A stretch of DNA of 64,000 nt from an uncultured Oscillospiraceae bacterium (GTDB lineage: Bacteria; Bacillota; Clostridia; Oscillospirales; Acutalibacteraceae), in the NCBI GenBank assembly GCA_900554335.1, contig USGT01000007.1, positions 15,235 to 79,234 on the forward strand, given 5' to 3'. The notes under the pieces are model-generated. The model worked only from the letters and a program-made list of their open reading frames with translations. It was not told the DNA's origin and did not search any database. Shown in pieces: positions 3,232-56,556 of the stretch. Numbering within the stretch: position 1 is the stretch's first letter; every line of letters begins with the position of its first letter. Made by a program: the position numbers and the translations under genes.

Positions 3232-3333
3232 GTTTTTATTTTGATTTCGGTATTTATTTAATAAAAATAGATTAAAAATTTATTGACTAATTTTCATAAA
3301 AATATTATAATTAAAATAAAGGAGATGTTAAAA

Positions 3334-4473
3334 ATGAAAAGCCTGAAAAAAGTAACTGCATCCATTCTTTCGGTGTTAATTTCTTTTTCCGCTGTTAGTG
3401 AAGCGGCTGAAACTACCGTTGATTCTAACCCAAATTTTTGCTACAAAATAGTTGGCGAAAAAAATGCCGTTTTAACTGAATTTAAATCTTCTAAGCTAAA
3501 AAATCTTTCGGATCCTGAAGGTTACAATATTATTGAAATAGCAGATGATGCAAGCAAAACTGAAGTTTATAATCGCAGCGATGTTATTAATTTTTGGGCG
3601 ACGGTTGTTTTAACAGCCCCTACCATAGTTGTGCCGGCATTTATGTTTGATAATCCTGAAAATCCTCCAAAAGTTGGAAAATTTAAACGAAATAATGTTA
3701 TCTCTGGAATAACTTCTGTAAATTTGCCTCACTGCAAAAGAGTTGGGAAAAGGGCTTTTTCATGTTGCAATAAACTTGAAACTGTCAACCTGCCTGAATG
3801 CACTACCTTGGAAAGAGACAGTTTGATGGGCTGCATTATGGTTAATAAACTTAACGTTCCCAAATGCTTGACTTTGAGTAGTCCTTTTGGAATTTACGGC
3901 AATCATTCTGCAAAAGGAAGCTTGAAAGAGCTAAATGCTGAGCAATGCACGAAAATTGAAAAGGGAAGTTTCAAAGGTTTTATGAAGCTTGAAATTGCGA
4001 ATATCCCAAATGTTACTTATGTCGGAAGTGAATGCTTTGACTATTGCAAATCGCTAAAAGAGCTTGATTTAAACAAATGCAAAATTATTCCCGAAAGATG
4101 TTTCCAAAGATGCTTTGGTTTGAGAACAATTTTGTTGAATTCTTGCACTGAAATTAAGAAAAACGCTTTTAAAAAATGCGAATCACTGCAGAATATGAAC
4201 TTGCCTAATTGCGCCAAAATAGGGCCAGACGCTTTCGAAGGTTGCAAAAATCTGTGTAAATTAAGCGCACCGAAATTAACAAGTATTTCAAAAAACGCTT
4301 TTACCAGTTTGAGCGAAGTTTACATTCCGGCGTGCAAATATGTTGGTGAAGGAACATTTAACAATTGCAGGAATTTAAAGAAAATAACTGTTTCGCGCGA
4401 TTGCAAATTCGAAGGAAGTTCTTTGCCATATGATAAAGTTTTAAATAATGAATTAGAAATTGTTAGAGTATAA
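3334..4473 (+). CDS. BspA-type Cys-rich leucine-rich-repeat surface protein (signal peptide)
   Basis: Consensus promoter TTGACT-16-TATAAT lies upstream and a GGAG RBS precedes the start. Signal peptide followed by ~23-aa repeats of the form LP.C..IG..AF..C..L. Tandem paralog of the next gene. Confidence 0.7.
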   Translation: MKSLKKVTASILSVLISFSAVSEAAETTVDSNPNFCYKIVGEKNAVLTEFKSSKLKNLSDPEGYNIIEIADDASKTEVYNRSDVINFWATVVLTAPTIVVPAFMFDNPENPPKVGKFKRNNVISGITSVNLPHCKRVGKRAFSCCNKLETVNLPECTTLERDSLMGCIMVNKLNVPKCLTLSSPFGIYGNHSAKGSLKELNAEQCTKIEKGSFKGFMKLEIANIPNVTYVGSECFDYCKSLKELDLNKCKIIPERCFQRCFGLRTILLNSCTEIKKNAFKKCESLQNMNLPNCAKIGPDAFEGCKNLCKLSAPKLTSISKNAFTSLSEVYIPACKYVGEGTFNNCRNLKKITVSRDCKFEGSSLPYDKVLNNELEIVRV

Positions 4474-4508
4474 AATTTGGATGAATATATAAATGGAGAA
4501 TACTAAAA

Positions 4509-5660
4509 ATGAGAAGTTTTAAAAAAATAACAGCTGCTGTTCTTTCGGGGCTGATTTCTTTTTCTGCTGTGAGTGCTTTGCCTGAAACTACCGTTGATTC
4601 AAACCCGAATTTTTCTTACAAAATATTAGAGGGAAAAGATATCATTTTAACTGAGATAAAACCTTCTAAACTCGAAACACTTTCAGGCCCGGTTGAAGGG
4701 TATTATAATGTTGTTGAAGTGGCTAATGATGCCAGCAAAGCCAAAATTGTAAAAAATAATTACACTATTTTGGACGCTATTGAATTTTGGGGCATAGTTA
4801 TTGGTTTGGGTTTTACTGTTATAGTCCCAGTGTGCATGCTTAGCAACCCCAATATAAGGCCGGAAATTGGTAAGTTTAAAAATTTTAAATATATTTATTC
4901 AAAAATAACTTCTGTGGATTTGCCGCATTGCAAAAAAGTGGGCAAGAATGCTTTTCTTAGCTGCCAAAATCTAAAAACTGTGAGTTTGCCCAAATGCACT
5001 ATTTTGGAAAAATGCAGTTTAATGAGCTGCCATAATGTTACTAAACTTAATGTTCCTGAGTGTTTGGTTTTGGATAACCCCTTTGGAATTGACACCAGTT
5101 ACTCCATACGCTATGATGCCGGCAAAAAACTTAAAGAGTTAAATGCTCAAAAATGCACCAGGATTGAAGACAGGTGTTTTGGCGGGTTTATGAATTTAGA
5201 AAAATTAAATCTCCCGAATTTAGTTTCTGTTGGGTGCGAAAGTTTTGCGCTTTGCCGTTCTTTGAAAAATGTTTCTTTGAATTCTTGCGCTGAGATTAAA
5301 GAATGTGCTTTCAGGAAGTGCACATCTTTGAAAAATATAGATTTACCTAATTGCAAAAAAATTGGCTGGGGTGCTTTTGAAGGTTGCTGTAAGTTAACTA
5401 AATTTAATGCACCGAATGTAAAGGAAATTGGCGCGAATGCCTTTGGAGCCTTTAGAAATGATCGCGATCAAACGGTGTGGTTTAAGCGCAATAATTTAGA
5501 AGAGGTGTATGTTCCAAGCTGCAGTTATATTGGTGAAAATGCTTTTAGCGATTGCAAAAAACTAAAAAAGATAACAGTTTCGCATAATTGCAAATTTGCA
5601 AAAAATTCCTTGCCATTTGAAAGGGTTTCAAGCAATAAATTAGAAATCATAAGGGTTTAA
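4509..5660 (+). CDS. BspA-type Cys-rich leucine-rich-repeat surface protein (paralog)
   Basis: Same architecture and similar N-terminus (…SFSAVSA.PETTVDSNPNF.YKI…) as the upstream gene. A terminator hairpin follows. Confidence 0.7.
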   Translation: MRSFKKITAAVLSGLISFSAVSALPETTVDSNPNFSYKILEGKDIILTEIKPSKLETLSGPVEGYYNVVEVANDASKAKIVKNNYTILDAIEFWGIVIGLGFTVIVPVCMLSNPNIRPEIGKFKNFKYIYSKITSVDLPHCKKVGKNAFLSCQNLKTVSLPKCTILEKCSLMSCHNVTKLNVPECLVLDNPFGIDTSYSIRYDAGKKLKELNAQKCTRIEDRCFGGFMNLEKLNLPNLVSVGCESFALCRSLKNVSLNSCAEIKECAFRKCTSLKNIDLPNCKKIGWGAFEGCCKLTKFNAPNVKEIGANAFGAFRNDRDQTVWFKRNNLEEVYVPSCSYIGENAFSDCKKLKKITVSHNCKFAKNSLPFERVSSNKLEIIRV

Positions 5661-28774: not shown

Positions 28775-29380
28775 TCAGCCTCCTTTTCCAATGTTTTTAA
28801 GCGTCATGCTTATCATTTCGTCAACCGAAAGATTCTGGCTAAGGTTTGCAAGCCACGGCGTTATTTCGGGCTTTGAAAATCCTAAAGACATCAAAGCGTT
28901 TAAAGCCTTGGCTTTGTTGCCTGCCGTTGTTGAAGATGGCATCTCGGCTATGCTTTCGGTTTCTTCTGAAGAGTTTATTTTTGAAAATTTATCTTTAAGC
29001 TCCAAAATTATTCTCTTTGCAGTTTTCGCGCCAATTCCCGGTGCAGAAGTCAAAGCTTTGCTGTCTGCGTTTGAAATTATTCCCGCAAGTTCGCTTGAAG
29101 GGAAGCACGAAAGTATCCCGAGCGAAGCTTTTGGCCCAACGCCTGAAACCGAAATCAAAAGTTTGAAGTGTTCAAGCTCGGTTTCGCTTGAAAAACCAAA
29201 AAGCTCAACGCTGTCTTGGTGCACATTTAAATATGTATAAACCGTTACTTCTTCAGTTTTTTCCCTCAAAGCAGCCTGCGTGAACAAAGAACACATGCAT
29301 TTGTATCCAACGCCGCCGCACTGAACAACCAGAAAATTGTCTTTGGCAAGCATTATTTTGCCCGTTAAACTGTATATCAC
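28775..29380 (-). CDS. ruvA: Holliday junction DNA helicase RuvA
   Basis: The sequence IYSLTGKIM…LVVQCGGVGY and HhH motifs fit RuvA. GTG start chosen manually. The track ATG at 29491 would overlap ruvC by ~100 nt. Confidence 0.8.
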   Translation of the reverse strand: MIYSLTGKIMLAKDNFLVVQCGGVGYKCMCSLFTQAALREKTEEVTVYTYLNVHQDSVELFGFSSETELEHFKLLISVSGVGPKASLGILSCFPSSELAGIISNADSKALTSAPGIGAKTAKRIILELKDKFSKINSSEETESIAEMPSSTTAGNKAKALNALMSLGFSKPEITPWLANLSQNLSVDEMISMTLKNIGKGG

Positions 29381-29387
29381 TTTACTG

Positions 29388-29906
29388 TCACACTCCTGTG
29401 AATTTATTTTTCGAAATAAGCCCCGCAACGTAGTGCCTTCCAAGAGACTGCACGTGGCAAATGCCTGCTGCCAAGGCATCAGCGGTATCATCCGGTTTGG
29501 GGACTTCTTTTAAATTAAGAAGCCTTGTAACCATGAGCATAACCTGAGGCTTCAAAGCTCTGCCGTAGCCTGTGAGGGCGCTTTTTATTTGAAGCGGTGT
29601 GTATTCAAAAATAGGAATGCCACACTTTTTCGCCGCAAGAAGCGTAACTCCTCTGGCTTGAGCAACATCTATTGCAGTTTTGTGGTTATTTTGGAAATAA
29701 AGCTTTTCAATTGAAATAGCATCAGGGTTATATATCTTTATTATTTCGGTTATTCTATCGTATATTTTTTCAAGCCTTAAAAGAAAATCATCTTTTGAAT
29801 CAGTCAGCACTGCACCGTAATCTTTCGCAGTGAATTTACTGTTTTTGTATTCTATTACTCCCCAGCCAACGATCGCATAGCCTGGGTCAATGCCTAATAT
29901 GAGCAC
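29388..29906 (-). CDS. ruvC: crossover junction endodeoxyribonuclease RuvC
   Basis: N-terminus MLILGIDPG and RNase H-like fold motifs. Confidence 0.95.
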   Translation of the reverse strand: MLILGIDPGYAIVGWGVIEYKNSKFTAKDYGAVLTDSKDDFLLRLEKIYDRITEIIKIYNPDAISIEKLYFQNNHKTAIDVAQARGVTLLAAKKCGIPIFEYTPLQIKSALTGYGRALKPQVMLMVTRLLNLKEVPKPDDTADALAAGICHVQSLGRHYVAGLISKNKFTGV

Positions 29907-30014: not shown

Positions 30015-30431
30015 ATGAAGACAACAAACAATTTGAGCAGTTGCAGACCTTGTTGCAGCACAGCTGGGATTTTACTCGGTATTATTTCGGGTATAATAGT
30101 AGCAATCCTTTTCTCATTAGGACTTACACCTCTGATTTTAAATGGAATATGGGTTGCTTTTAGCATCGGAGCTGCGGCGCTAGTTTATGTTGCAGTTTTG
30201 GCGGCTGTGGGTGGTTGCAGTTCTTGCAGCGCTTTAAGAGGAAGCCTTATTAAAAATTTAAGATGTTTACTAGCCGGCATATTCGGCACCATTTTAACCT
30301 CAATCGTGCTTGTGTCGGTCGCACTTGAAATATCTTCAATCATAATTTCAGTTTTGGTTGGAATTTTAACATTTTTCTTAATATTTCTTGTAGCGTCTCT
30401 TATTTCTTTTCTAAAATCTTTAGTCTATTAA
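30015..30431 (+). CDS. small Cys-rich multi-pass membrane protein
   Basis: GAGGGGAG RBS. About 4 TM segments and Cys clusters (SSCRPCCS, GGCSSCSALRG). Confidence 0.5.
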   Translation: MKTTNNLSSCRPCCSTAGILLGIISGIIVAILFSLGLTPLILNGIWVAFSIGAAALVYVAVLAAVGGCSSCSALRGSLIKNLRCLLAGIFGTILTSIVLVSVALEISSIIISVLVGILTFFLIFLVASLISFLKSLVY

Positions 30432-30562
30432 CATCATAAAGTTAGCCCGGTGGTATAATAATATCATCGGGCTTATTCTTCTTAATTTGTAATTTATAAT
30501 TAATTTTTTCAAGTTTAAATCTGTTTATAATATATAAAACCCAGAAATTTAATTTTCGAGTT

Positions 30563-30615
30563 GACATTTTGCCCGAATGAATTTTATAATCTAAATAATG
30601 TGATATCTTATCACA
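30563..30615 (+). promoter_or_regulatory. consensus sigma-A promoter (TTGACA-spacer-TATAAT) with perfect palindrome TGTGATA-tct-TATCACA just downstream
   Basis: Exact hexamers. A 7-bp perfect inverted repeat overlaps the transcription start region, upstream of the Spo0A_C-domain gene. Confidence 0.6.
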
Positions 30616-30651
30616 GTGATTTTAAATTACATTCACATCGGAGGATCAAAA

Positions 30652-31044
30652 ATGGACGAAACAATACGAAGAAGCAAAGACATAATTTACAACGGTAATG
30701 ATGAAACACTGCTAAAAAGAATAGAAGTGACCAAAAAAGTTTTAAGGGAAATTGGCATACCTGCTAATTTCATTGGGTATAAATATATCGGTGAGGCAAT
30801 TCTTTACATGTTGCAAAATAAAGAAGTAAATTTCGTTAGTGAAATATATCGCAAAATTGCTGCATACCACCGCACTTCGCCAAATTCAGTCGAAGTTTCG
30901 ATTAATAACGCAATTAAAAGAGCACTTGAAATTTCTGAAGAAAACGTCAGAAAAATTTTGAAGATTTCAAGTTCAGTCAAACTCACTAACTCTGTCTTTT
31001 TAAACACAGCAAAAGAAATAATTTATGAAAAAGTGATTAAATAA
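30652..31044 (+). CDS. standalone Spo0A C-terminal (DNA-binding) domain protein
   Basis: Matches Spo0A_C: EIGIPANFIGYKYIGEAI ~ GVPAHIKGY.YLREAI. Also …YHRTSPNSVEVSINNAIKRA… ~ …TTASRVERAIRHAIE…, and …SVKLTNSVFL… ~ …KPTNSEFIA…. GGAGGA RBS and no receiver domain. Confidence 0.65.
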   Translation: MDETIRRSKDIIYNGNDETLLKRIEVTKKVLREIGIPANFIGYKYIGEAILYMLQNKEVNFVSEIYRKIAAYHRTSPNSVEVSINNAIKRALEISEENVRKILKISSSVKLTNSVFLNTAKEIIYEKVIK

Positions 31045-31065
31045 ACGCAAATTAAAAGCCGGTTA

Positions 31066-32004
31066 CTAATCGTAATCGGCATTAGTGCTTTCACTTGAAA
31101 GTTTGCAAATTATAAGCTCAGGGTCGTTAAGGAATCTAAACGGTAATTTACTTTTTCCAAGCCCGCGGCTTATAATCATTTTTGTGTTTTCGAAAGTATG
31201 CAAACCCGAGGTGTATTTCGGGAAAAAGCCCTGCCCAGGAGACATAAGCGGGCCTATAAACGGCAACCTTATTTGCCCTCCGTGAGCGTGCCCGGTGAAA
31301 ACTAGATCATATTTATATTTGGCGTAAATTTCTATATACTGCGGCTGGTGAGTTAACAACACATTGAATTCAGAATCATCTAACTTTATTTTATCAAGGC
31401 AGCGTTTAATTATGTTTTCCTCAATCATTATAACTTCTTCAATTGTTATGATCTTTTTTCCGCTGTTTTTTATGTATTCATCTACATAGTCGTCAAAATA
31501 CATTTCTAGGTCGTTAATTCCTGCTAAATTTATGTGCTTTCCTTTGAAATTAAGCTTAGTTGAAGTTTCATCCAGCAAAGTCACGCCAGAATTGGCAAGG
31601 CTTTCTCTGATTTTTTTCAAATTTTCTTTTCCAACTTGATTTTCGTGGTTCCCCGTAACAAAATAAACCGGGGCAATTTTGACAATATTATTTACAAATT
31701 CAGTCACGTCGCTTATTTCTTTTTCTATGTCTTTGCTGCGTTTGTAAATTAAATCACCTGTAATAACTATTACATTCGGCTTATTTTGCTCAATTCTTTT
31801 TATGAGCCGGGCTTGGTTTTTGCCAAATTTGGTGTTATGTAAATCCGAAACTTGAACTATTGTGTAACCATTAAATTCTTCAGGGATTTTAGGGCTTTTT
31901 ACTTCAAATGTAGTGCTGCAAATGTGGTGGTTTCCAATGTAAAGCACAGCCCAGAAAAGCCACACGATAAATACCAGGATAACAATAGAATTTTTCAATT
32001 TCAT
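31066..32004 (-). CDS. membrane-anchored metallophosphoesterase (calcineurin-like)
   Basis: N-terminal TM helix. Motifs DLH, GDL, GNHE and GHAHG. Confidence 0.8.
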   Translation of the reverse strand: MKLKNSIVILVFIVWLFWAVLYIGNHHICSTTFEVKSPKIPEEFNGYTIVQVSDLHNTKFGKNQARLIKRIEQNKPNVIVITGDLIYKRSKDIEKEISDVTEFVNNIVKIAPVYFVTGNHENQVGKENLKKIRESLANSGVTLLDETSTKLNFKGKHINLAGINDLEMYFDDYVDEYIKNSGKKIITIEEVIMIEENIIKRCLDKIKLDDSEFNVLLTHQPQYIEIYAKYKYDLVFTGHAHGGQIRLPFIGPLMSPGQGFFPKYTSGLHTFENTKMIISRGLGKSKLPFRFLNDPELIICKLSSESTNADYD

Positions 32005-32106: not shown

Positions 32107-32913
32107 TTAGTTTTCTTTGTCAAGAATTAAAAGCGGGTCGATGAATTTGCCTTCTTTATTAATAGCAAGGTGAAGGTGGCTTTGGCCTTCGGCTGCTTCG
32201 CAAGGCACTTCGTCTATTTTGCCTATTTCATCGCCATTTTTAAGTTTAGCGCCCTTTTTAACCGGTACATTTTTTTCAAGGCCTGAATAATATGCAGTGA
32301 ATCCACCGTCATGAGACATAACCACGGTTGTTCCATAAGATGGATCTTCATAAACGTCTGCAACAACGCCTGAAGTTATGGATTTAACAGCGCTTCCTTT
32401 TTCAGCTTTGAAGTCTGTTCCTTCGTGTGACCGCCAATCACAAAAAGTTTTGCTGTAAACTGGTGTGTCACCGCTGAATTCTTTTGTCACAGTGCTGTCG
32501 GTTGGGTAAGAAACTTCCGGTTTTTCTTCGGGTCTTTCGTTTTCTGCCCAAACTGCTTTGACTTTTTCTTCGCCGGCGTCTGATTCTTTTTCTGCTGGGG
32601 CATCAGCGGGTTTTGCTGCTTCTTTCTCAGGTTTTTTCTCAAAAGGAATAGCCTGCTTTTTTTCGAAGCTGTCGTTTTCGTTTAAAATTTCGTTTTTAAC
32701 GGTCGATTGCTTCATTGGTGGGTTATTTTTCGGTTTTGAAATTCTTGGGCTATTGCTTTTTTGAGGAGTAACAAATTCTTTAACCGTTTTATAAGTCGAC
32801 CAACCTGCCGCTGAAACCGCTGCAAGACACACGAGCAAAGCAACGTAAAACTTTGAATGTCTTTCGGGTTTTTCTTCGAATTGCTCTTGAATGTTTCCGT
32901 TTTTAATTTTCAT
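32107..32913 (-). CDS. M23 family metallopeptidase, membrane-anchored (LytM/SpoIIQ-like)
   Basis: N-terminal TM helix. M23 motifs HEGTD (HxxxD) and HLHLAI (HxH). A terminator hairpin lies downstream. Confidence 0.8.
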   Translation of the reverse strand: MKIKNGNIQEQFEEKPERHSKFYVALLVCLAAVSAAGWSTYKTVKEFVTPQKSNSPRISKPKNNPPMKQSTVKNEILNENDSFEKKQAIPFEKKPEKEAAKPADAPAEKESDAGEEKVKAVWAENERPEEKPEVSYPTDSTVTKEFSGDTPVYSKTFCDWRSHEGTDFKAEKGSAVKSITSGVVADVYEDPSYGTTVVMSHDGGFTAYYSGLEKNVPVKKGAKLKNGDEIGKIDEVPCEAAEGQSHLHLAINKEGKFIDPLLILDKEN

Positions 32914-48491: not shown

Positions 48492-48894
48492 AGCTTATTC
48501 CTCCAGTTTGCTTAATTACTTAAAATTCTACCAGAAAATTAAGAAAACTTCAAGAGATTAGCTAAAGTATATTTCCAAATCATAAATACAATATAATTTT
48601 AATAGTTCTTAAATACTTGCAAATTTTTGATAATATGTATAAATTTTCCATATTCGCAATTCGAAATAAGATAGATATAAAATAATTATTATTTTTAAAG
48701 TCAATTAGCCTTATCAAATTGTGAATAAACTACAAATATTTTCAAAAGACTTGTTTTTGATTTCCGTTTATAATATAATTTCCTAGTGTTAAAAACAATT
48801 AGTAATATGTTAAATTTTATCAAATTATTAATAATTTCAATTACTAAAATAAACTATTTTATCATTAAACTTAAACAGGAGCGTGTATAAAATT

Positions 48895-49620
48895 ATGTCA
48901 GATTCATCAATGGGATTAATTTATGTTGTAGATGATGAGCCGAATATTAGAAGGCTTGCTTCTCTGGCACTCAAAGAGTATGGTTTTGAGACACAAGAAT
49001 TTTCAGGCGGAGATGAACTTTTAAGAGCTGTTCAAAGACGTTGCCCGGATCTTATAGTTCTTGACTGGGTTATGCCTGCGCCAGACGGCCTTAGCGTTTG
49101 CGGAAGACTCAAACTCGACAAAACAACTAAAGCTATCCCGATTATTCTTTTAACTGCAAGGAACGATGAAGTTGATTGCGTGCTTGGCCTTGAAATGGGA
49201 GCAGACGACTACATCACTAAACCTTTCAGCTTGAAAGAACTTTGCGCAAGGGTTAAAGCGGTTATTAGAAGAAATGAATACCTCAACACAAACTCAAGCA
49301 ACAACGACATTATAACCTGCGGCGGAATCACGATTAACCTTGCAAGAAGAACAGTTTCCAAAAACGGCCAACTTATCGACCTTACAATGAAAGAATTCGA
49401 TCTTTTAACTTCGCTTATGCTCAGCAAAGGCAGCGTTCTTAACAGAGATCAACTCATGGAAAAAGTTTGGGACGTTGAATTCAGCGGAGACGCTAGAACA
49501 GTTGACGTTCACATCAGATATTTGCGCCAAAAAATCGAAGATGATTCTGAAAACCCGAAATATATTTTAACTGTTCGCGGTGTTGGATACAGATTCGCAT
49601 CTGAAGACGAAATTCAATAA
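48895..49620 (+). CDS. OmpR-family response regulator
   Basis: Receiver motifs (DDE…D…K) and a winged-helix C-terminus (…TVRGVGYRF). The ATG at 48895 was preferred over the track's GTG at 48883. Confidence 0.85.
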   Translation: MSDSSMGLIYVVDDEPNIRRLASLALKEYGFETQEFSGGDELLRAVQRRCPDLIVLDWVMPAPDGLSVCGRLKLDKTTKAIPIILLTARNDEVDCVLGLEMGADDYITKPFSLKELCARVKAVIRRNEYLNTNSSNNDIITCGGITINLARRTVSKNGQLIDLTMKEFDLLTSLMLSKGSVLNRDQLMEKVWDVEFSGDARTVDVHIRYLRQKIEDDSENPKYILTVRGVGYRFASEDEIQ

Positions 49621-49648
49621 AAATTTTTAGGAGGTGAAGTGAGCAATT

Positions 49649-50341
49649 ATGGACAAATTCAGAAATATTAATAAATCTGAACTTGATGGCCTTGTTCATG
49701 ATTTAAAAACGCCTATAACTTCAATTATGGGGTTTGTTGAGCTTTTGAAGCAAGGTGGCCACGACCAAAAAACAACGACAGAATTTTACGACATAATTCT
49801 TTCGGAATCTCAAAAACTTTTGAAGCTTGTTAATGACATTCTTTATATTAACAAAACCGGCGAGAATAAAATTGACCCTTGCAACCTTACCATTCAGCTT
49901 GACAAATACGTCAAAGAGCTCACTCCACTTGCTAATAAACACAATGTAAAAATATGCATTAACAGCGCTTCGAGTGACATATATGTTTCGATTCCTGAAG
50001 ATAAAATTTCGCGCATTTTAATAAACATAATTGAAAACGCAATTAAATATAATAAAGAATACGGAAAAATATTTATCGACATTGAAGAAGAAAATAAGCA
50101 AGTTTCTGTTAAAATCCGTGATACCGGTGTTGGTATCCCTGAAAATGAACTCGACAAAATATTTAACAGATACTATCGCTCTTCCGTCACAAAGAAAATG
50201 AGCGTTGAAGGCTCAGGCCTTGGCCTCGCAATTGCTAACGACATAGTTAAAGATTATAGCGGCCACATTAAAGTAAACAGTAAACTCGGGGAATATACGG
50301 AATTTATTATTACTTTCCCTGCTTCAAATATTTCGAAATAG
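49649..50341 (+). CDS. cytoplasmic histidine kinase lacking TM/sensor domain
   Basis: H-box LVHDLKTPITSI near the N-terminus, plus N, G1 and G2 boxes (NAIKYN, DTGVGIP, GSGLGL). Only 230 aa and no hydrophobic segment. Confidence 0.8.
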   Translation: MDKFRNINKSELDGLVHDLKTPITSIMGFVELLKQGGHDQKTTTEFYDIILSESQKLLKLVNDILYINKTGENKIDPCNLTIQLDKYVKELTPLANKHNVKICINSASSDIYVSIPEDKISRILINIIENAIKYNKEYGKIFIDIEEENKQVSVKIRDTGVGIPENELDKIFNRYYRSSVTKKMSVEGSGLGLAIANDIVKDYSGHIKVNSKLGEYTEFIITFPASNISK

Positions 50342-56265: not shown

Positions 56266-56556
56266 TTAATAAGAGTCATCTATGTAATCTTCAATCACAT
56301 CTCTGAAATGAATAGTGTCAATGCCATTTTCAGAAAGGCAATCAATCAAATTTAAAACTTCTGTTTTATCTTGAGAAATGTCTTCCACTTTTACACTTTC
56401 ATTTATAGAGCTAGATCTCAAAATCAGCTCTATTCCATATGTTTTTCCACTCAAAATTGAATCATTTTCGCTCTCACACAGGTTATATTCGAGCTCTCTG
56501 CCTCCGAAAGAACGTTGCGAAAGAATACAAACATTTTCTTTACCCAAAAATCTCAT
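56266..56556 (-). CDS. hypothetical protein
   Basis: 96-aa acidic ORF convergent with the upstream gene. No recognisable domain. Confidence 0.4.
   Translation of the reverse strand: MRFLGKENVCILSQRSFGGRELEYNLCESENDSILSGKTYGIELILRSSSINESVKVEDISQDKTEVLNLIDCLSENGIDTIHFRDVIEDYIDDSY

Follow-up and report, generated by a model that had tools for sequence, protein, structure and literature searches.

The 64-kb stretch of DNA analysed here (the window), from an uncultured Oscillospiraceae bacterium, carries a chromosomal gene for a stand-alone Spo0A effector domain (Spo0A_C), with a near-consensus promoter and a palindrome, TGTGAT-N5-ATCACA, at its predicted transcription start. The exact core of this palindrome, GTGAT-N5-ATCAC, is found 5–10 nucleotides (nt) past the TATAAT box in about 14 lineages, within intergenic DNA that is otherwise unalignable. 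The product of 130 amino acids (aa) is very probably a DNA-binding protein with the fold of the Spo0A effector domain, and we have good confidence that the palindrome is a functional cis-element controlling the gene. The best explanation of these features, which we hold with about even confidence, is a receiver-less Spo0A-family factor that exerts negative autoregulation through the palindrome. The stand-alone architecture is already known; what is new is a chromosomal, vertically inherited clade with a re-specified recognition helix and an operator at the start site that its receiver-bearing relatives also possess.

A stand-alone Spo0A effector domain

The preliminary description of this DNA had proposed a gene for the Spo0A effector domain without its receiver, and the proposal is borne out. 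The match to the Spo0A_C profile, on which it had been made to depend, is clear: the Pfam scan returned Spo0A_C (PF08769) as the single domain, at residues 29–121 (E=1e-16; 61.3 bits against a cutoff of 25). The reading frame of the gene is shut 48 nt 5' of the ATG, the first codon after the stop being at 30604, so that no receiver can be read into the 130-aa open reading frame (ORF), and the intergenic region 5' of the gene (220 bp) is too short for a receiver remnant. An alternative GTG start at 30616 has no ribosome-binding site and begins inside the regulatory palindromes, and the Met equivalent to the ATG at 30652 is the start in all orthologues. Against the NCBIfam Spo0A equivalog (TIGR02875), the protein scored 43.4 bits, with a cutoff of 200, and aligned to profile positions 150–248 (the C-terminal part) only. 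Of the properties of that equivalog it has the effector fold, and it lacks both a receiver with a phospho-acceptor Asp and a score at the cutoff.

A sequence search of the PDB gave the Spo0A effector domains 1FC3 and 1LQ1 as sole significant matches. The AlphaFold2 model, built with 13 homologues, has six helices (predicted local distance difference test, pLDDT, 90.5; predicted template-modelling score, pTM, 0.86), and the same two structures were the only meaningful Foldseek matches in the PDB (TM 0.70–0.83, root-mean-square deviation 2.0–2.6 Å). These Bacillus and Geobacillus effectors share with the window protein the PF08769 domain, the six-helix fold and the position of the helix-turn-helix, but they are only 24–28% identical to it, and the window protein has no receiver. 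The gene is present in many gut metagenome contigs. Compared with the sister species, whose protein is 86% identical, the ratio of nonsynonymous to synonymous divergence (dN/dS) is 0.097, and the gene is under purifying selection.

A start-site palindrome conserved across lineages

The consensus promoter and the perfect palindrome at the predicted start, both described beforehand, are present (Table 1), and the palindrome fits a dimeric repressor. The promoter spacer is one of 18 nt, against an optimum of 17; the promoter is identical in the sister species, and distant orthologues share its anatomy (TTGAyw, 17–18 nt, TATAAT). The palindrome, designated O1, begins 8 nt past the -10 box and would lie at or just after the predicted transcription start, at about 30597–30598. 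The O1 17-mer has no further match in the 64 kb when up to 2 mismatches are allowed (0.11 expected), and at least one match was found in 10 of 100 shuffles, so that O1 is not significant on the window alone; its significance comes from its conservation in other lineages. With one mismatch allowed, the core has three extra matches in the window, at 30616 (the candidate second operator O2, which is kept in the sister species), at 32427 inside the coding sequence of an M23 peptidase, and at 56284 in what was judged by eye to be a small minus-strand ORF.

Table 1. Coordinates of the Spo0A_C-domain gene and the associated features in the window.
Feature	Coordinates	Strand	Description
Cys-rich four-transmembrane (4-TM) protein gene	30015..30431	+	138 aa, 6 Cys; four hydrophobic segments by inspection
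Intrinsic-terminator-like hairpin	30444..30473	+	13 pairs, then T-rich tail; ends the 4-TM gene
Sigma-A-type promoter	30561..30590	+	TTGACA 30561-30566, 18-nt spacer, TATAAT 30585-30590; score 12/12
Putative operator O1	30599..30615	.	TGTGATAtctTATCACA; TGTGATA-TCT-TATCACA, conserved core GTGAT-N5-ATCAC
Candidate second operator O2	30616..30630	.	GTGATtttaaATTAC; degenerate, 1 mismatch; abuts O1, centres 16 bp apart
Ribosome-binding site	30640..30645	+	GGAGGA, 6 nt before ATG; kept in the sister species
Spo0A_C-domain gene	30652..31044	+	ATG 30652 to TAA 31044, stop included; 130 aa
Imperfect hairpin	31058..31080	.	GCCGGTTAC-taatc-GTAATCGGC; between the convergent Spo0A_C and metallophosphoesterase genes; by eye, weak

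Recurrence outside the locus had been set as the test of the palindrome, and the exact core was found at the promoters of all members of the stand-alone (solo) clade and of a receiver-bearing sister group, with one mismatch in L034 (Table 2; L-numbers denote loci of relatives and P-numbers family proteins). Non-redundant DNA totalling 168 kb holds 15 exact copies of the core, with 0.19 expected from composition, and 14 of the 15 lie at these promoters. The operator travels with the gene and not with the neighbourhood, which differs among loci and includes feoAB (L008), an Amidase_3 gene (L017, L018 and L031) or a recombinase (L020). No operator precedes the genes of the more distant clade members L024, L032 and L033, the canonical-like genes of L025–L028 or the viral copies of L029/30. 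The distribution of the operator tracks phylogeny, covering the solo clade and the receiver-fused sister group. In L031, a second exact copy, AGTGATttaaaATCACA, lies inside the receiver-coding region (2634–2648, +134); elsewhere each locus carries a single copy, confined to the promoter, and no other clade gene contains an internal copy.

Table 2. Operator sites at promoters of solo and receiver-bearing genes.
Gene type	Lineage or locus	Site
Solo	Window	TGTGATatcttATCACA
Solo	Sister species	TGTGATaacttATCACg
Solo	L008	aGTGATgttaaATCACt
Solo	L010	TGTGATtaattATCACt
Solo	L044	TGTGATtaatcATCACt
Solo	L012	TGTGATgttttATCACA
Solo	L013	TGTGATtttttATCACA
Solo	L043	aGTGATttaatATCACt
Receiver-bearing	L016/17	TGTGATttaaaATCACA
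Receiver-bearing	L018	TGTGATtttaaATCACA
Receiver-bearing	L020	TGTGATtttaaATCACc
Receiver-bearing	L021	TGTGATttaaaATCACA
Receiver-bearing	L022/23	TGTGATtaaaaATCACA
Receiver-bearing	L031	TGTGATttaaaATCACA
Receiver-bearing	L034	TGTGAc...ATCACA, one mismatch

The centres of the half-sites lie 11 bp apart, which is one helical turn, and the site occupies approximately +1 to +20 of a near-consensus promoter. Across these deeply diverged lineages the bases of the core stem are invariant and show no covariation, a pattern that sequence-specific recognition would produce. This pattern bears on the possibility that the palindrome acts as RNA, forming a stem-loop at the 5' terminus of the mRNA, either to stabilise the transcript or to be recognised by an RNA-binding factor. 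Only a few nt would separate this hairpin from the predicted 5' end, and it appears in both the minimum-free-energy and the centroid folds, and the two natural A>G variants, one at an outer position in the sister species and one in the core in 4 of 8 strains, both keep a U.G wobble pair. However, the fold energy of the leader is ordinary (z = -0.89, with 34 of 200 shuffles folding as well), the leader has no Rfam match, the five core pairs never covary, and the variable distance from the -10 box would place the start inside the stem in some lineages. We consider an RNA-level role distinctly improbable.

The palindrome also resembles the 17-bp GlnR/TnrA box, whose consensus in B. subtilis and streptococci is TGTNA-N7-TNACA, and it might accordingly be the site of such a MerR-family regulator in nitrogen control. 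The window site (TGTGA-tatctta-TCACA) and several orthologous sites, such as ATGTGAtgttttaTCACAT in L012, fit this consensus. Nevertheless, conservation runs contrary to that consensus: no lineage varies at the “N” position (G4/C14) or at the next base (T6/A12), whereas the outer T1/A17, which GlnR boxes conserve, differs in L008, L043, L010, L044, L020 and the sister species. No MerR-type or nitrogen genes are linked to the site at any locus, and the site tracks one clade of Spo0A-like genes, which leaves this alternative a very slim chance. A CRP/FNR or Rex site (TGTGA-N6-TCACA) was rejected, as the spacing is 7 nt and not 6 in every lineage.

Recognition helix and origin of the receiver-less clade

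An exhaustive HMMER search (E<=1e-3) returned 716 family clusters. These include true Spo0A proteins of ~255–270 aa (P0121 and P0105, with 279 and 209 bits on TIGR02875), many stand-alone Spo0A_C proteins of 100–170 aa, and receiver-bearing proteins of 243–253 aa that score 66–154 bits on the same profile. In an alignment of 234 domains, canonical members display the recognition helix VERAIRHAIE and the motif PTNSEFIA near the C-terminus. The clade of the window protein is characterized by the helix VE[VAI][SA]I[RN]NAI[KR][KR]A and a C-terminal [ST]NSxFL, and the window protein carries both signatures, with VEVSINNAIK in the helix (EVSINN in place of ERAIRH) and TNSVFLN where Spo0A has PTNSEFIA. 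Among the 228 domains counted, the first Arg position of the helix holds Arg in 120 and the second in 180.

The closest relatives of the window domain, at 40–45% identity, are receiver-bearing Spo0A-like regulators from uncultured Clostridia (P0047, P0048, P0053, P0074; L016–L023), which carry the clade signature VE[VA]SIRNAIKKA / SNSxFL and share with the window gene the layout of promoter and operator. These proteins (245–252 aa, annotated as stage 0 sporulation protein A) differ from it in possessing a receiver with an acidic pocket, a phospho-acceptor Asp and a conserved Lys, as judged by inspection, and in retaining the helix Arg lost in the window species; their TIGR02875 scores of 66–154 bits remain below 200. 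In a neighbour-joining tree, which was built without bootstrap and is indicative only, the receiver-less proteins with ruvC or 4-TM context form one group. Its sister group is receiver-bearing (P0047, P0048, P0053, P0074, P0094 and the genes of L017, L018 and L020), and the pair is embedded among other divergent receiver-bearing proteins, themselves nested within canonical Spo0A.

Directly after the receiver-bearing gene in L020, and equally after the solo gene in L044, lies the same convergent M23 peptidase gene; the L020 peptidase is 41% identical to that of the window (E=6e-67). This one-sided synteny suggests that the solo gene replaced a receiver-fused gene at the same locus. The simplest history would be a single loss of the receiver-coding part, with the promoter and operator kept. 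The receiver-fused relatives occur in the context of an Amidase_3 gene, a recombinase or a PP2C phosphatase.

Several further observations were made within the family. Proteins with 2–6 tandem Spo0A_C domains and no receiver (P0031, P0033, P0036, P0040, P0041 and others) include one of 439 aa with 4 domains and one of 849 aa with 5–6, and at least two Spo0A_C domains are present in 49 of the 163 family proteins examined. Upstream of the receiver-bearing relative in L020, a large serine recombinase gene (172–1576, two overlapping ORFs) may mark insertion of a mobile element at that locus. In L033 (GCA_026001365.1, BNZV01000034.1; 1–3241), the gene of the divergent receiver-bearing P0055, which NCBI calls stage 0 sporulation protein A, lacks the operator and directly follows genes for a phage tail sheath and tube and a PP-binding ORF.

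Regulation of the gene and alternative readings

The preliminary description had further suggested that the protein occupies 0A boxes (TGTCGAA) constitutively, as a mimic or competitor of Spo0A, and this part of it is not supported. Its attraction lies in the fold, which is that of the Spo0A effector domain, in the ability of isolated Spo0A DNA-binding domains to bind 0A boxes without phosphorylation (PMC3485338), and in the similar action proposed for truncated spo0A copies of gut phages (PMC10294663). In B. subtilis and C. difficile Spo0A, all DNA-contacting residues are shared, and TGTCGAA is read through G2, C4 and G5 (PMC3485338). The window protein, however, is changed at conserved positions of the recognition helix and reaches 43 bits on TIGR02875 against the cutoff of 200, while the phage copies that we retrieved keep the canonical helix SRAERGIRHAIE and are only 31–39% identical to it. 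Its own promoter region contains no 0A box with up to one mismatch, and the element that travels with the clade is the palindrome, not TGTCGAA; the two share the first three bases, TGT, and nothing further is apparent. Exact 0A boxes number 5 in the window, against roughly 8 estimated by chance from the 7-mer frequency on both strands. We consider such a role as mimic or competitor at 0A boxes highly improbable.

Under the reading that we prefer, negative autoregulation, the protein would act as a transcription factor independent of phosphorylation, as it has no receiver. Isolated Spo0A DNA-binding domains bind their targets without phosphorylation (PMC3485338). The gene would be transcribed from its near-consensus sigma-A promoter, and a dimer of the product would bind the palindrome through half-sites one helical turn apart. 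The palindrome overlaps the predicted transcription start, and the dimer on it would block RNA polymerase, so that the protein would be held at a set level; in the receiver-bearing relatives, the corresponding binder would be the phosphorylated regulator. We infer from the sequence evidence all three components of this reading, namely recognition of the operator as DNA, recognition by the gene's own product, and repression as the outcome of binding. Autoregulation is the most economical reading because only the clade gene always accompanies the site. The arrangement also resembles that of negatively autoregulated helix-turn-helix repressors in general, which likewise combine a strong promoter with a palindrome at about +1 to +20 and half-site centres one helical turn apart; for the present gene, autoregulation is proposed from the co-occurrence of site and gene.

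Several observations weigh against this reading. Use of symmetric sites is not known from the Spo0A family, and canonical Spo0A in 1LQ1 reportedly binds head-to-tail direct repeats rather than palindromes. The two helix Arg reportedly have a base-contact role in the 1LQ1 structure of Zhao and colleagues (2002). Asn takes the place of the second helix Arg in both the window species and its sister, yet the operator is kept, and all other operator-bearing relatives retain this Arg; were the half-site read by this Arg, an unchanged operator beside an Asn would be unexpected. The window species is also polymorphic at the operator: half of its strain contigs, 4 of 8 (loci L035, L039, L040 and L041), carry the variant TGTGATatcttGTCACA, in which an A>G change at 30610 (-42 from the ATG) turns ATCAC into GTCAC; this position is one of only two variable sites within 300 bp upstream. 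With the outer-position A>G change in the sister species, the constraint on the operator looks relaxed, or the interaction may be changing, in the window lineage. As O1 is unique in the 64 kb, no regulon can be defined from the window. The binder could also be another regulator or a receiver-bearing paralogue encoded elsewhere.

The likeliest form of that alternative is a receiver-bearing Spo0A-like paralogue for which the palindrome is the operator and the solo gene a target, the solo protein being an output of the paralogue or a competitor for the same sites and not its own repressor. The receiver-fused sister genes bear the same operator, and the loss of the conserved helix Arg with retention of the operator in the window lineage would suit this alternative. 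Clostridial genomes with 2–3 spo0A paralogues are documented (bioRxiv 10.1101/2022.02.25.481979), and in the organism of L008, which carries a solo gene, the sporulation genes yabP and yqfD persist, so that a full-length Spo0A is probably also present there. However, no such paralogue was found in the window or in any locus retrieved, and the one-sided synteny at the M23 peptidase (L020 compared with L044) suggests replacement and not coexistence. We regard control by a paralogue as rather unlikely.

The same synteny, which suggests replacement rather than addition, raises a further possibility, that in this gut lineage the solo gene is the only surviving spo0A descendant, its receiver lost and its specificity moved from 0A boxes to the palindrome. 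The factor would then be uncoupled from the phosphorelay, constitutive and self-limiting, and paired with a lineage-specific Cys-rich membrane protein. The presence of yabP and yqfD beside a solo gene in L008 counts against this, since it suggests that at least some carriers still have a normal Spo0A, and we judge the proposal improbable.

The upstream 4-TM gene and genomic context

The Cys-rich 4-TM gene that had been described directly upstream is present, and its position as neighbour is conserved across lineages. The 138-aa protein matches no family in Pfam or NCBIfam, and its own family is tiny, consisting of 14 clusters that have neither a name nor a Pfam match. It is 56–61% identical in L010 and L013, with invariant C10, C14, C68, C71 and C84, and is more conserved than its Spo0A_C partner. 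Copies lie at 3291–3713 in L010, about 888–1310 in L013, 3501–3935 in L043 and 3501–3923 in L044. In every locus examined for it, the 4-TM gene is directly 5' of a solo Spo0A_C gene, and two syntenic loci, both with the order ruvCAB / 4-TM / Spo0A_C, were reached starting from 4-TM homologues rather than from Spo0A_C. This association hints that the two proteins may form a functional pair. The Spo0A_C gene is its own transcription unit, because the terminator-like hairpin at 30444–30473, which is kept in the sister species, ends the 4-TM gene. The weak hairpin downstream of the Spo0A_C gene was not called by the terminator scan; it is a possible bidirectional terminator.

The window is an ordinary Clostridia chromosome segment with 36% G+C. 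On the minus strand, truA, ECF transporter genes, a methyltransferase gene, glmM, ruvB, ruvA and ruvC precede the 4-TM and Spo0A_C genes, which are followed by the convergent metallophosphoesterase and M23 peptidase genes. Beyond the latter lie an HD protein gene, ackA, pfk, rpe, lspA, divIVA and sepF, and farther off in the window are mutS, mutL, miaA, miaB, ffh, rimM, trmD, recR and dnaX. This neighbourhood of ruvC and a 4-TM gene differs from that of spo0A, which is usually found beside spoIVB. Neither a full-length spo0A nor recognisable sporulation genes were found among the about 60 genes of the 64-kb window, nor were phage or mobile-element genes. The M23 peptidase was considered as SpoIIQ and rejected (48.7 bits against a cutoff of 250).

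Synteny with the sister species is full, and the order glmM-ruvB-ruvA-ruvC / 4-TM / Spo0A_C is kept in L010, L011 and L044 (about 41–47% identity), L013 (42–45%) and L043 (39–44%). The Spo0A_C gene is chromosomal and vertically inherited, with gene order holding to about 40% protein identity. An origin from a phage or mobile element was rejected, as the housekeeping neighbourhood is conserved and the phage and viral collections gave only partial matches in the 31–39% range.

Within the block, the Spo0A_C gene is the most diverged (84% nt identity and a synonymous divergence, dS, of 0.81 against L002 8001–8393), the eight neighbours showing 91–96% nt identity and dS of 0.12–0.44 against the sister species. 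The excess divergence may reflect local recombination or fast evolution. The downstream metallophosphoesterase is 312 aa long, against 299 aa in the sister species. The mechanically called ruvA ORF (28775–29491, 238 aa) overlaps ruvC by about 100 nt, and its orthologue was called at 201 aa; the true ruvA start is probably internal to the 238-aa ORF.

Elsewhere in the window, two adjacent paralogous BspA-type leucine-rich-repeat proteins of 396 and 383 aa are encoded at 3283–5660. Two runs of ORFs, at 9103–12844 (289, 499 and 384 aa) and 736–2744 (246 and 421 aa), have no Pfam match, and the 246-, 421- and 289-aa ORFs have no NCBIfam match either. At 48883–50341, an OmpR-type response regulator gene is followed by one for a 230-aa histidine kinase that consists only of HisKA and HATPase domains, with no room for a membrane or sensor part. 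A Fic/DOC-family protein gene (56820–57995) follows a long AT-rich intergenic region.

Relation to known Spo0A-family proteins and implications

Human-gut phages are reported to carry effector-only homologues of spo0A, which were suggested to bypass host signals (Schwartz et al. 2023, PMC10294663), and PF08769 is enriched on mobile elements of gut Firmicutes (Jiang et al. 2019, PMC6907783). Proteomics of Faecalibacterium also lists several “Spo0A homologs” (PMC13020158). The window gene shares with the phage and mobile copies the stand-alone Spo0A_C architecture in gut Firmicutes, but it is chromosomal, has housekeeping flanks and is syntenic to about 40% identity, whereas the viral copies retrieved have the canonical recognition helix and no operator. 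The literature searched contains no functional study of any stand-alone Spo0A_C protein and no description of the clade, its palindromic element or its 4-TM partner; effector-only Spo0A homologues are discussed there only for phages.

In gut Firmicutes, the ability to sporulate is predicted from the presence of spo0A (PMC8340488; bioRxiv 10.1101/2022.02.25.481979), and its product is regarded as a single-copy marker whose DNA specificity is fixed. The present analysis describes a whole clade of Spo0A-domain proteins, with and without receivers, that departs from Spo0A in its recognition helix and in its palindromic putative cognate element, and that includes a chromosomal receiver-less form stably inherited under purifying selection. 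Searches for spo0A at the domain or tblastn level can therefore be misled by members of this clade. With a protein of 130 aa and a site of 17 bp, the system offers a tractable case for studying how the DNA specificity of the Spo0A family is re-programmed.

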